Shown piece by piece: positions 1 through 6,292 of a DNA stretch of 64,000 nucleotides. The translations under genes and the position numbers were made by a program. The notes beneath the pieces were generated by a model that saw only the letters and a list, made by a program, of their open reading frames with translations, did not search any database and was not told where the DNA came from. The number at the start of each line of letters is the position of its first letter. The stretch's first letter is position 1. The stretch comes from Candidatus Fervidifonticultor quintus (GTDB lineage: Bacteria > Sysuimicrobiota > Sysuimicrobiia > Sysuimicrobiales > Humicultoraceae), in contig JAVKIJ010000005.1 of NCBI GenBank assembly GCA_031459535.1, forward strand, positions 1 to 64,000, written 5' to 3'.

Positions 1-286
1 CATTCCCTACGCGCACCATGAGAAGTGGGACGGCACCGGCTATCCCCGAGGGCTCAAGGGCGAGCAGATCCCGCTCGCGGCGCACATCTTCGCCGTGGTG
101 GACGTCTGGGACGCGCTGCGCACGGATCGGCCGTATCGAGCCGGGTGGTCCGACGCCCGGGCGCGCCGGTACCTGCGGGCCGAGGCCGGCCGTCACTTCG
201 ACCCTGCCGTAGTCGAGGCGTTCCTCCAGATGCTGGAGGAGATGGAGAGGGCGCGGCCGGAAGCGCTGCGGTCTACACGGCCGTGA
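1..286 (+). CDS. HD-GYP domain protein, C-terminal part (5' end outside window)
   Basis: Frame starting at nt 2 reads [46 protein letters not shown], i.e. the HHExxDGxGYP and D..DAL...RPY motifs; stop at 284-286. Confidence 0.9.
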
Positions 287-1256
287 CCGGTACCGCGATG
301 CCCAGCTCGAGCAGCTTCTGATCCACGAACGCTTGCAGCCGCTGGATCATCTCGGGCGTCAGGTGGTGGAACCGGCCCTGGGCCTGAAGATAGTCGCCTA
401 CCGGCCGACGCCGGCGGGGCCGCTGCGTCACGGTGACCTTGCCACGGTCGATCTCGTAGTTGGTCCACATGCCGGTCTCAATGGCGAGGCGGCCGATCTC
501 CACGGTCCGCTCGGCCTCGAACGACCAGCCCCGCGGGCAGGGCGCGTGGATGTGCATGAACGTGGGCCCGCGGGTGGCCAGCGCCTTGCGGACTTTCGTC
601 ATTAGATCGAAGGGGTAGGCGATCGAGGCGGTGGCCAGGTACTGGACGGCGGGATGGCCCGCCGCCACCAGCTTGACCAGGTCCTTGGGGAACAGGCGCT
701 TGGCCTCGGGGACCACCGGGCCCGGGGGCGTGAAGGTGGTGTGGGCACCCCACGGTGTCGTCGGCGATGTCTGCACGCCGGTGTTGGCGTACGCCTCGTT
801 GTCGTAGCAGATGTACAGGAAGTCGTGCGCGCGGTACATGGCCCCGGACAGCGCCTGGAGCCCGATGTCAGCTGTGCCACCGTCGCCGGCGAAGACGATG
901 ATGTTGGGCCGGGGGCCCTGCTTCTTGCCCTTGCGCTGCATGACCTTCCAGGCGGCCTCGATGCCCGAGGCGACGGCGCCGCCGTTGGTGATCTGGGTGT
1001 GGATCCAGGGCACCGCCCATGGCCCGCAGAGGTAGCTGGTGTTGGCCACGTACATGCAGCCGGTGGGCCCCAGGAAGATGGTGTTGGGGCCGGCGGCCTT
1101 GGCCACCAGCCGATATGCCAGCGCCGGCCCGCAGCCCGCGCACGTGCGGTGGCCGGGGACGTAGTACTCGTCCCGGGGCGCATCGCGCGGCGACCGGACG
1201 GGCGCGAACGCTTCCCGCTCGACAGTGATGAGACCTTCTCCGTATCGTGTCGTCAT
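273..1256 (-). CDS. Oxalate:ferredoxin oxidoreductase-like beta subunit (TPP-binding)
   Basis: [33 protein letters not shown]...[13 protein letters not shown] motif and HIHAPCP; closely resembles the Moorella thermoacetica OOR beta subunit as recalled. Confidence 0.9.
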
Positions 1257-2470
1257 CGCCCAGGCTCCTCCCCCCGCACGTGCAGAGGTTCGAATCCCAC
1301 CCAGAAGACCCGCCTGGCCAGGCGCTCGCTCGCCAGAGCCTCCCGCAGGGCATCGGCCATGCGGAAGAAATCGTCAATCCGCACCACCTCGCCCCCGAGC
1401 CCAGCCGTAAAGGTCAGGAGCTTGGGGCGCGGATCGACCGGATAGAGCGCCGCGCGCACGTCCAGCGTCAGCGGCCCGCTGTCATCGGCGCACCCGAACG
1501 AGTTGGCGTTCTCGAGGATGCCGACGGCCCCGAACCGGGATAGGGCCGCAGCCACCTCGGCCGTGGGGAACGGCCGGAAGAACCGGAGCTGCACCACGCC
1601 GATCTTCACGCCCTCGCCCCTCAGCAGCGCCGCGGCCCGCCGGGCGGTCTCGATATGGGCGCCCTGGCCGAAGAAGACCATCTCGGCATCCTCGGTCTGG
1701 AACTCCTGGAGGAACGGCCCGTAGCTGCGCCCGAAGATCCGGTTGAAATCGGCGATGACCTCAGGAATGATGCGGCGGGCCGCGGCCATGGACTCGGCCC
1801 GGCCGCGCTCGATCGCCGCGCCCTGATCCGCGCGGCATTGGGGTCCGAACAACCAGGGGTCTGCCGGATCCAGCGAGCGCTCCGGGCGGAAGGGTGGCAG
1901 GAACGCGTCCACCTGCTCCCGGTCGGCCAGCAGTACGTCACCAGACACATGCGAGAGGAAGTAGCCGTCCTGGCAGGGGAACTGGGGAAGCAGGACGCGG
2001 GGGTCCTCACCCAAGCGGTAATAGATCAGAGTGTTGTCATACGCCTCCTGCGGGGTGCTGGCCCAGCCCATGATCCAGCCCTGGTCCCTGGCGGACATGG
2101 CCTCGGTGTGCTCGGACCCGAAGTCCCCCGGCGGGTCGAGGGTGCGGTTGGCGATCATGCACTGCACGGGGTGGCCCTCCCCGGCGATCGGCGAGTAGAG
2201 TTCGAAGGCGTAGGTGATGCCCACCCCAGCACTGCCGGTGAAGACCCGCGCGCCTGCGGCGGACGCCCCCATGACAATGCTGAGCTGGGCGTGCTCACCC
2301 TCGGCGTGGACGAACTCGGCGTCCAGCTCCCCATCGGCCACCATCCGGGCCAGCTCGATCATGACGCCCGTATAGGGGCGGATGGGGTAGGAGGCGATGA
2401 CATCCACGTCGGCGGCCCGGACCGCCTCGGCCACCGCCTTGACTCCGCTGATGCGTGCCAGCCTGCCCAT
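1253..2470 (-). CDS. Oxalate:ferredoxin oxidoreductase-like alpha subunit
   Basis: SYPIRPYT (Arg where PFOR has YPITP), EGEHAQLS and [11 protein letters not shown] carrying the OOR Arg/Asp substrate residues; 4-nt overlap with the beta gene. Confidence 0.9.
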
Positions 2471-2478
2471 GCCTCACC

Positions 2479-5525: not shown

Positions 5526-6270
5526 GAGCCCGCCGGGCCTCGCTGCTCAGGATAAACCGCGTCACCTCATCGAGGTGGGCCGCCATGGCCGCTTCCGCCG
5601 CAGCGGCATCGCCGTCCCGCACGGCGGCCAGGATGCGCCGGTGAGCTTCCAGCGAGGCCTGGTTCCTGGCCCGCGACTGCAACAGACGCCCGCGCGTGCT
5701 CTGGATCAGGTCCATGCAGCGCGCGGTGACCCGGACGAAGACCGGATTCTTGGTGGCCGCCGCCAGCGCGTGGTGGAACTGCGTGTCCTCGTCTGCAGCA
5801 GGCTCGCCGCGCTGCACCTTGCGGGCCGCACGTGCCAGGATCGCCTCCATGTCCCTGATCTCTGCGGAGGTGGCCCGTCGTGCAGCCGTGGCGGCGATCG
5901 ACGGCTCCAGGGCCTTGCGAAACTCCATGATGTCCAGCACCGACTGGCCGCCTGCCGACAGGACCGCCACCAGGGCGCCTGCGAGCTTCTCGGTGCTGGA
6001 CTCCCTGATCACGGTGCCCCGGCCGGGCCTGGGTTCCAGCACGCCCTTGATCGTCAGAATGCGGATCGCCTCGCGCAGCGACGCCCGGCTCACGCCCAGG
6101 GCGCGCGCTAGGTCACGCTCCGGCGGGAGCCTTGCGCCCTCGACGGTGCCTCGCTCCCGTACCAGAACCTCCAGGCGAGGCAGGATCTCTTCGTACAGCG
6201 GAGACTTGCGAACCGGTCGGAGCGCTCTCGACTTCAGGAGCACGTCGCGCGGAGCGGCGCGGGTACGCAT
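5512..6270 (-). CDS. FadR-subfamily GntR transcriptional regulator
   Basis: wHTH LPPERDLARALGVSRASLREA plus FCD domain (DTQFHHALA, EAHRRIL, HLDEV). Confidence 0.93.
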   Translation of the reverse strand: MRTRAAPRDVLLKSRALRPVRKSPLYEEILPRLEVLVRERGTVEGARLPPERDLARALGVSRASLREAIRILTIKGVLEPRPGRGTVIRESSTEKLAGALVAVLSAGGQSVLDIMEFRKALEPSIAATAARRATSAEIRDMEAILARAARKVQRGEPAADEDTQFHHALAAATKNPVFVRVTARCMDLIQSTRGRLLQSRARNQASLEAHRRILAAVRDGDAAAAEAAMAAHLDEVTRFILSSEARRAHGSH

Positions 6271-6272
6271 CG

Positions 6273-6292
6273 TGGTCAGACCTTCCGACCAA
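6273..6292. promoter_or_regulatory. Putative FadR operator TGGTC-N9-GACCA
   Basis: tggtcagaccttccgaccaa immediately upstream of the FadR start; a similar site is at 57073-57092. Confidence 0.65.

Follow-up and report, generated by a model that had tools for sequence, protein, structure and literature searches.

A predicted oxalate oxidoreductase operon in Candidatus Fervidifonticultor quintus carrying a Cdc48-derived AAA+ ATPase with a degenerate second ring

The DNA considered here (the window) is the first 64 kb (positions 1 to 64,000, forward strand) of contig JAVKIJ010000005.1 of Candidatus Fervidifonticultor quintus, a member of the candidate phylum Sysuimicrobiota whose genome (assembly GCA_031459535.1) amounts to 3.1 Mb in 138 contigs and is 88.85% complete. 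At its beginning, where the GC content lies at about 0.62-0.72 over the first 12 kb, the open reading frames (ORFs) and the reading of the sequence place five minus-strand genes in one tight operon, in the order gntR, ATPase, delta, alpha and beta. The last three encode the subunits of a predicted oxalate oxidoreductase (OOR), an enzyme working with thiamine pyrophosphate (TPP), and the ATPase gene stands between them and the regulator:

5512-6270, minus strand: GntR/FCD regulator, first gene of the operon, 252 amino acids (aa) (Pfam)
3450-5525, minus strand: Cdc48/VAT-like double-ring AAA+ ATPase, 691 aa (Pfam, NCBIfam)
2479-3453, minus strand: predicted OOR delta subunit, 324 aa, domain III plus two-cluster ferredoxin domain V (Pfam, NF045790)
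1253-2470, minus strand: predicted OOR alpha subunit, 405 aa, domains I-II (Pfam, NF045791)
273-1256, minus strand: predicted OOR beta subunit, 327 aa, TPP-binding domain VI (Pfam TPP_enzyme_C, NF045792)

The 3' end of the regulator gene overlaps the start of the ATPase gene by 14 nucleotides (nt; 5512-5525), the stop codon of the ATPase (TGA, 3452-3450) is interlocked with the ATG of delta (3453-3451) as ATGA, delta and alpha are separated by 8 nt, and the alpha stop and the beta start share a further ATGA. A first-pass annotation of the window had described this gene order and these junctions (14 nt, ATGA), which were found where it had placed them, on the minus strand. The ATGA coupling to which it drew attention is present here, but is a lineage-specific trait, since a second genome carrying the operon has a 19-nt spacer between ATPase and delta. 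Shine-Dalgarno-like GGAGG sequences precede delta (6 nt from its ATG), alpha and beta; only a distant GAGG lies ahead of the ATPase, so that its start probably relies on coupling with the gene of the regulator. In any case, overlapping by 4 or 14 nt is ordinary for genes in GC-rich operons, and the interest of the locus resides in its gene content and not in its overlaps.

The assignment of the enzyme to OOR, already made from the sequence alone, is sustained by the family models of alpha and delta and by three active-site determinants. The alpha subunit scores 575.4 on NF045791 (cut-off 500) and delta 271.8 on NF045790 (cut-off 230), both being NCBIfam equivalog models of OOR, while beta, with 549.9 on NF045792, lies slightly below its cut-off of 590, the next family being PorB at 354.8. 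In Pfam terms, delta consists of POR (residues 29-185) and Fer4 (250-306), alpha of POR_N and PFOR_II, and beta of TPP_enzyme_C. As expected of OOR, delta combines domain III with a ferredoxin domain for two [4Fe-4S] clusters, and the eight cysteines of the clusters vary little or not at all across 38 aligned rows. The article on the Moorella enzyme (PMC5020499) describes Arg31, within a unique YPIRP motif, as the residue binding oxalate and Arg109 as conserved, and assigns Arg31 and Asp116 a role in a "bait and switch" plug-loop mechanism. The determinants sought were the Arg31 of YPIRP, which replaces the Thr of YPITP, together with Arg109 and the Asp116 of the plug or switch loop. The alignment of alpha with Moorella OOR alpha (5c4i_A, 510 bits) runs without gaps from residues 1-394 on 1-394 and puts R31 (YPIRP), R109, D116 and F117 in register, within the stretches SYPIRPYTG and RTLDPPGDF; these four residues are invariant in all 48 aligned alpha sequences.

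The enzyme is thus, as far as its sequence tells, an OOR and a new member of a known family, with a small doubt on the substrate arising from the beta score and from the lack of a recognizable OxlT: the best match of the genome to an oxalate transporter of that type scores 88.9, below the cut-off of 335. By prediction, oxalate would be oxidized to 2 CO2 with reduction of ferredoxin and without the need for CoA. With the Moorella thermoacetica OOR (5C4I, 5EXD, 5EXE) the enzyme shares the three subunits, the split of domains and the determinants, whereas its host here is a GC-rich bacterium from hot springs that belongs to a small candidate phylum and possesses an aerobic respiratory oxidase, and beta remains slightly under its family cut-off.

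The ATPase is the sole Cdc48-like gene of its genome. Pfam recognizes CDC48_N (51 bits, residues 5-82), CDC48_2 (33.8 bits, residues 113-160), two AAA domains and AAA_lid_3 in two stretches, and the closest solved relative is VAT (5g4f, 584.7 bits). Nevertheless, the score of the curated Cdc48 family was not reached (TIGR01243, 645.5 against a cut-off of 802.65), because the second AAA module, D2, is degenerate. The earlier label "Cdc48-type" consequently suits the architecture, but neither the family score nor D2, and from its sequence the protein is best described as Cdc48-derived. Its AlphaFold2 model (mean predicted local distance difference test, pLDDT, of 81.8) has three folded parts, followed by 13 last residues which are predicted to be disordered:

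5010-5525, minus strand: N domain, residues 1-172, double-psi barrel plus beta-clam (CDC48_N, CDC48_2)
4215-5009, minus strand: D1 AAA module, residues 173-437, with all catalytic motifs (motif table)
3453-4214, minus strand: D2 AAA module, residues 438-691, folded, conserved and catalytically degenerate (motif table, model)

The motifs of D1 are complete (GPPGTGKT, FLDELD, GATNMP and RRPGRFD, with the pore loop HKYYGESE). In D2, the Walker A sequence GPPGVGKN has lost the Thr and kept the Lys, LLLEGLD stands in place of the hhhDE of Walker B, the sensor ATTDRP lacks the Asn, the arginine fingers are replaced by a two-residue deletion, and the pore loop is altered to RWPGETE. The motif table comprised 64 aligned proteins, of which five form the group with a degenerate ("dead") D2: the window ATPase, P0001 (90% identical to it), and P0003, P0004 and P0005 (70-73%). 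The D2 losses are common to 5/5 of these, while 58 of the other 59 rows retain the motifs and one row has a gap at Walker B. Within the group, identity amounts to 68-89% in D2, 84-95% in D1 and 51-82% in N, whereas the median identity to the 59 other Cdc48-like rows is 37%, 67% and 31%, respectively. Moreover, the pLDDT blocks of D2 are mostly 72-93, which corresponds to a confidently folded AAA module. A module that is conserved and folded though degenerate points to selection for a non-catalytic role and not to decay, and since D2 has lost its hydrolysis motifs and D1 is complete, D1 would be the sole plausible motor.

In a quick maximum-likelihood tree with the archaeal-like rows as outgroup, the five proteins are gathered in a fully supported clade on a long stem. 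As its sister stands a bacterial group of 48 rows with common D1 signatures such as GATNMP and HK[FY]YG, a placement made unsure by the long branches. The degenerate D2 of the clade had escaped the first-pass annotation. A search with the N domain only returned just the clade and one Streptomyces protein. Two further proteins of about 1000 aa, P0002 and P0006, are 43-44% identical to the ATPase and rank, with 1034 and 923 bits, above homologues of 720 aa; an additional AAA module, or a fusion, may be present in them. As for a connection with proteolysis, the ATPase lacks an HbYX-type tail, ending in ...RPVAKGGCS where the archaeal rows end in ...MYA or similar, its last 13 residues vary among the members of the clade, and no gene of the proteasome/HslV family (PF00227) was found in the 88.85%-complete genome. 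Since neither such a gene nor such a tail was found, delivery of clients to a protease of the 20S/HslV type is less likely.

The association between this ATPase and OOR was followed through 94 genomes of the phylum, a set which includes the unpublished G013 and G022, both negative. OOR alpha exceeds the cut-off in two of them, and a profile of the degenerate D2 yields 468.5 and 333.5 bits in those same two, with no more than 146 bits in any of the other 92. The second positive genome, Armatimonadetes bacterium RBG_19FT_COMBO_69_19, belongs to a different family of the same taxonomic order and has the same gene order, ATPase-delta-alpha-beta, with the ATPase directly upstream of delta as in the window; its contig begins inside the ATPase gene and goes on with delta, alpha and beta. 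The delta of this genome scores 222.2, short of the 230 required, because a run of N falls in its 5' part (L041 599-623). In addition, a relative that is about 88-92% identical and comes from another study's sequencing run keeps the arrangement gntR-ATPase-delta-alpha-beta, its contigs bridging three of the four junctions (alpha/delta, delta/ATPase and ATPase/regulator) and covering the HD-domain gene next to the operon as well as beta; the runs X5 and X6 gave identical tables and were counted once. Therefore, the adjacency is not a peculiarity of one genome, and wherever the surroundings could be read the dead-D2 clade was found only beside OOR genes.

By contrast, among 60 relatives from the same genus, family and order, none has an alpha above the OOR cut-off (0/60) and a single one has any Cdc48-like gene at E<=1e-60, which is not near a 2-oxoacid:ferredoxin oxidoreductase (OFOR). 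This single gene (G016, same family; L009 1387-3543) encodes 718 aa with both rings present; its D2, which counts as intact, has Asp-Gln instead of Asp-Glu at Walker B (VFIDQLD), and two small ORFs of about 175 aa precede it. An indirect indication was also obtained from protein homologues, given that 3 of the 120 best ATPase homologues coincide with one of 118 OOR-alpha homologues in the exact size of the longest contig, when about 0.5 would be expected. The pairs are P0003/P0130 (12115), P0055/P0137 (8605) and P0119/P0196 (58233); P0003 is a member of the dead-D2 clade, and both it and P0130 stand near the top of their lists, while P0055 and P0119 have an intact D2. The scan of metagenomes with the D2 profile gave two weak, unrelated loci and did not return the close JGI relatives, and the search of plasmids with alpha gave just distant genes of the PorA type, at most 36% identical.

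The window itself provides a control, as it contains a second cassette of similar composition:

57060-61339, plus strand: second cassette, GntR/FCD regulator followed by delta-like (409 aa), alpha-like and beta-like OFOR genes
57060-57839, plus strand: regulator of the second cassette, 48% identical to that of the OOR operon
59098-60297, plus strand: alpha-like gene of the second cassette, 381.6 bits on the OOR model, 45% identical to OOR alpha

In this paralogue, alpha keeps YPIRP and Arg109 and has Ala for Asp116. No ATPase accompanies the second cassette, homologues of which occur in 36 of 61 related genomes; it is apparently the common form, inherited vertically.

The surroundings of the OOR operon are of another kind:

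6402-6638, minus strand: C-terminal end of an IS630-type (DDE_3) transposase, a remnant bounding the cassette upstream (DDE_3, 25.7 bits)
2-286, plus strand: 3' end of an HD-domain (HD_5) gene, convergent with beta and cut by the start of the contig
14474-16114, plus strand: ORF of 546 aa with the transposase-typical domains HTH_32, HTH_28 and HTH_29, another sign of mobile DNA

The remnant matches profile positions 110-145 of 146 (E 1.1e-5, below the cut-off of 28.6) and its frame is broken by stops. Beyond it, unrelated genes follow, coding for an EB_dh-domain protein, YceI, a glyoxalase, a Kelch protein, a DAO-type oxidoreductase and a sigma factor, and no oxalate-related gene was seen among the genes checked beside the cassette. 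The HD gene also adjoins beta in the contig of about 90% identity from run X5. When the empty site was looked for within the genus, only the EB_dh-domain gene had a counterpart (G003), with no synteny around it, in a tblastx comparison whose filter was loose and whose matches were mostly noise. The best explanation for the whole is that the operon was acquired horizontally.

What the ATPase does for the enzyme has to be judged from this pairing. A functional tie of some sort to OOR is fairly probable, and the chances are about even that the protein is a co-inherited remodeller dedicated to the assembly or repair of OOR, rather than to its disposal. The idea of a dedicated ATPase, put forward when the locus was first read, is therefore plausible, and has been strengthened by the co-inheritance and by the specificity of the association. 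In such a scheme, the ATPase would be a hexamer driven by D1 alone, with D2 as a ring of structural function that perhaps binds nucleotide. Clients or adaptors presumably bind to the N domain, which would recruit OOR or an unassembled subunit of it, and D1 would thread or pull the client so as to remodel it. Two jobs can be envisaged: helping an enzyme with three subunits, three [4Fe-4S] clusters and TPP to assemble, and stripping or recycling OOR whose Fe-S clusters have been damaged by O2 or whose TPP is held in a dead-end adduct. The host genome encodes a haem-copper oxidase (COX1) and comes from hot-spring samples, so that exposure of the oxygen-sensitive OOR to O2 is plausible; moreover, one study reportedly deals, to go by its title, with the suicide inactivation of OOR by pyruvate. 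When the N domain of the ATPase (1-172) was co-folded with delta and alpha of OOR, in a run without controls, the score was 0.00. More tentatively, the protein could be conceived as a Cdc48-derived "OOR activase", a live D1 on a dead-D2 scaffold, that restores OOR inactivated by O2 or by TPP adducts or is needed to build it, a proposal which we would call possible though somewhat doubtful; on that reading, and with no greater assurance, a bacterial Cdc48 lineage might have been recruited to maintain a single metabolic enzyme. The narrower proposal of a "reactivase" is rather unlikely.

Several observations weigh against a dedicated partnership. From 401 genomes drawn evenly across the Actinomycetota, five have an alpha above the OOR cut-off (loci L051-L055, in G187, G334, G336, G360 and G398), and none of these (0/5, or 0/4 when the unpublished G334 is left aside) shows any Cdc48-like match, be it on the contig that carries OOR or in the 13-19 kb retrieved around the locus, even though R31, R109 and D116 are present in both of the alphas aligned (L051 and L053). 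In G187, the Pfam domains reveal domain III, a 624-aa fusion of a GltD-like NAD(P)-type oxidoreductase with a ferredoxin, alpha and beta, and the same split of the delta match was obtained with tblastn at the other four loci. The electron module of these loci is thus a different one, its ferredoxin domain being joined to the GltD-like protein and not to domain III. An OOR-type enzyme can therefore do without the ATPase, and a partnership general to such enzymes is not supported: within this phylum the ATPase accompanies the bona fide OOR, but neither its nearest paralogue nor, elsewhere, every OOR-type enzyme. Furthermore, since the phylum's two positive genomes are related to each other and their cassette probably moves between genomes, the inheritance they share is weaker evidence than independent reunions of the genes would be. 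The tight ATGA junction between ATPase and delta is not conserved either. Expression of the operon is suggested by contigs from an RNA library of the likely source study, which cover parts of the five genes, one of them bridging alpha and beta and another, about 92% alike, the regulator and the ATPase; nevertheless, contigs of this library also cover the flanking insertion sequence remnant, carry-over of DNA is possible, and contigs cannot show that there is one transcript.

The patchy distribution of the cassette (2/94 genomes) and the transposase remnant at its border mean that the linkage could reflect the transfer of a block, and a general-purpose unfoldase or disaggregase might have travelled within it with no special relation to OOR. 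The bare actinobacterial loci (0/5) speak in the same sense, and a general role is conceivable for the only Cdc48-like protein of a genome. Nevertheless, such an explanation is unlikely, since the clade was never met away from OOR where its neighbourhood could be read (2/2 genomes, the relative of about 90% identity and one size match), 92 of the 94 genomes of the phylum do without the ATPase, and the operon encloses the gene, with the regulator on one side and the enzyme on the other, instead of having it at its edge. A quite different doubt bears on the substrate. The beta score (549.9 against 590), the absence of an OxlT over the cut-off (88.9 against 335) and the absence of oxalate-related genes among the neighbours checked would all fit an OOR look-alike acting on another small 2-oxo or dicarboxylic acid, in which case cassette and ATPase would serve another pathway. 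This is improbable in view of alpha and delta, both of which pass the equivalog cut-offs, and of the gap-free alignment of alpha to the Moorella enzyme, with R31, R109, D116 and F117 conserved and invariant in 48/48 sequences; in fact, the diverged paralogue in the same window differs clearly (381.6 bits, D116 to Ala).

Finally, the ATPase might unfold OOR for a partner protease once oxalate is gone or O2 arrives, or might remove the GntR repressor. Archaeal Cdc48/VAT and actinobacterial Cpa are best known for unfolding proteins that are to be degraded (PMC6017811), and the overlap of 14 nt couples the regulator gene to that of the ATPase. Disposal or control is quite unlikely nonetheless: among the protease families examined, which were those of the proteasome and HslV, no gene was found in the 88.85%-complete genome, the C-terminus is not of the HbYX type and its last 13 residues are predicted to be disordered and vary in the clade, and a dedicated degrader co-expressed with its target would be wasteful, though not unknown.

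With archaeal VAT/Cdc48 and eukaryotic p97 (5G4F), the window ATPase has in common an N domain made of CDC48_N and CDC48_2, two AAA modules and a complete D1. It differs from them in a D2 deprived of the Walker A Thr, the Walker B Asp-Glu, the sensor Asn and the arginine fingers, in the altered pore loop and in the lack of HbYX; likewise, its clade falls outside the archaeal-like group, as sister to bacterial Cdc48-like proteins, a placement which is unsure. Cpa of the Actinobacteria is also a bacterial double-ring relative of Cdc48 in which one ring is degenerate, and its gene likewise shares an operon with genes of metabolism. Its description (PMC6017811) has D1 without sensor Asn and arginine finger and D2 strictly conserved, places the gene in an operon with psd and pssA, and reports interaction with the 20S proteasome. 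The pattern is reversed in the window, where D2 is the dead ring; the ATPase has OOR genes as its partners there, and the genome yielded no proteasome gene. Cpa was considered as an identity for the window ATPase and rejected, with the opposite ring degenerate and OOR genes as neighbours in place of psd/pssA.

The arrangement inferred here, with D1 as motor and D2 as scaffold, resembles, in logic only, that of NSF, a eukaryotic double-ring AAA+ protein in which D1 works while D2 binds nucleotide and mainly holds the hexamer together, and which acts on SNARE complexes through SNAP adaptors. A further parallel is offered by Rubisco activase/CbbX and by CoxD of CO dehydrogenase, where an AAA+ gene also lies beside the genes of one metabolic enzyme and a remodelling function is proposed; however, these proteins have a single ring, belong to other AAA+ clades and have demonstrated activities, whereas the window ATPase is a double ring of Cdc48 type known from sequence alone. 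No publication linking OOR or ferredoxin oxidoreductases to an AAA or Cdc48 protein was found, in a search that stopped short of the primary OOR papers and in which some items were judged by title or by the start of the abstract; to that extent, the initial remark that no AAA+ partner had been described for OFOR enzymes agrees with what was retrieved. To our knowledge, no job has been assigned to bacterial Cdc48-like proteins outside the Actinobacteria, and we know of no member of the OFOR family that needs an ATP-driven helper. A pair of genes which stays together through transfer gives a testable handle on both questions, and the dead-D2 clade constitutes a natural experiment on which ring of Cdc48 a job needs. 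If the helper is real, it matters for the production of active OOR in a foreign host, for instance for oxalate removal or CO2 chemistry; if not, the locus is an ordinary oxalate operon that has moved horizontally.

Regarding the control of the operon, the regulator was initially named fadR. This holds as far as the family is concerned, since GntR (54.2 bits) and FCD (101.4 bits) make up the winged helix and FCD domain of the FadR (FCD) subfamily architecture, but not as an identification with E. coli FadR: the best NCBIfam matches are LldR, NanR, PdhR and GlcC, every one of them below its cut-off, and FadR itself was rejected, with NF003444 at 40.5 against a cut-off of 189 and higher scores for LldR, NanR and PdhR. 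The GntR/FCD protein would probably act as a repressor of the operon that is relieved by binding an organic acid, which is presumably oxalate. The scan of the region upstream of the regulator for promoter and terminator consensus sequences and for inverted repeats gave nothing on the relevant strand. The pattern GGTCNGACC is not enriched, with 3 occurrences in the window when 2.6 are expected. One element was noted immediately ahead of the regulator gene:

6274-6282, strand not assigned: 9-bp palindrome GGTCAGACC, a candidate operator only, 3 nt ahead of the regulator ATG (sequence read)

This palindrome may resemble operators of the FadR/LldR type.

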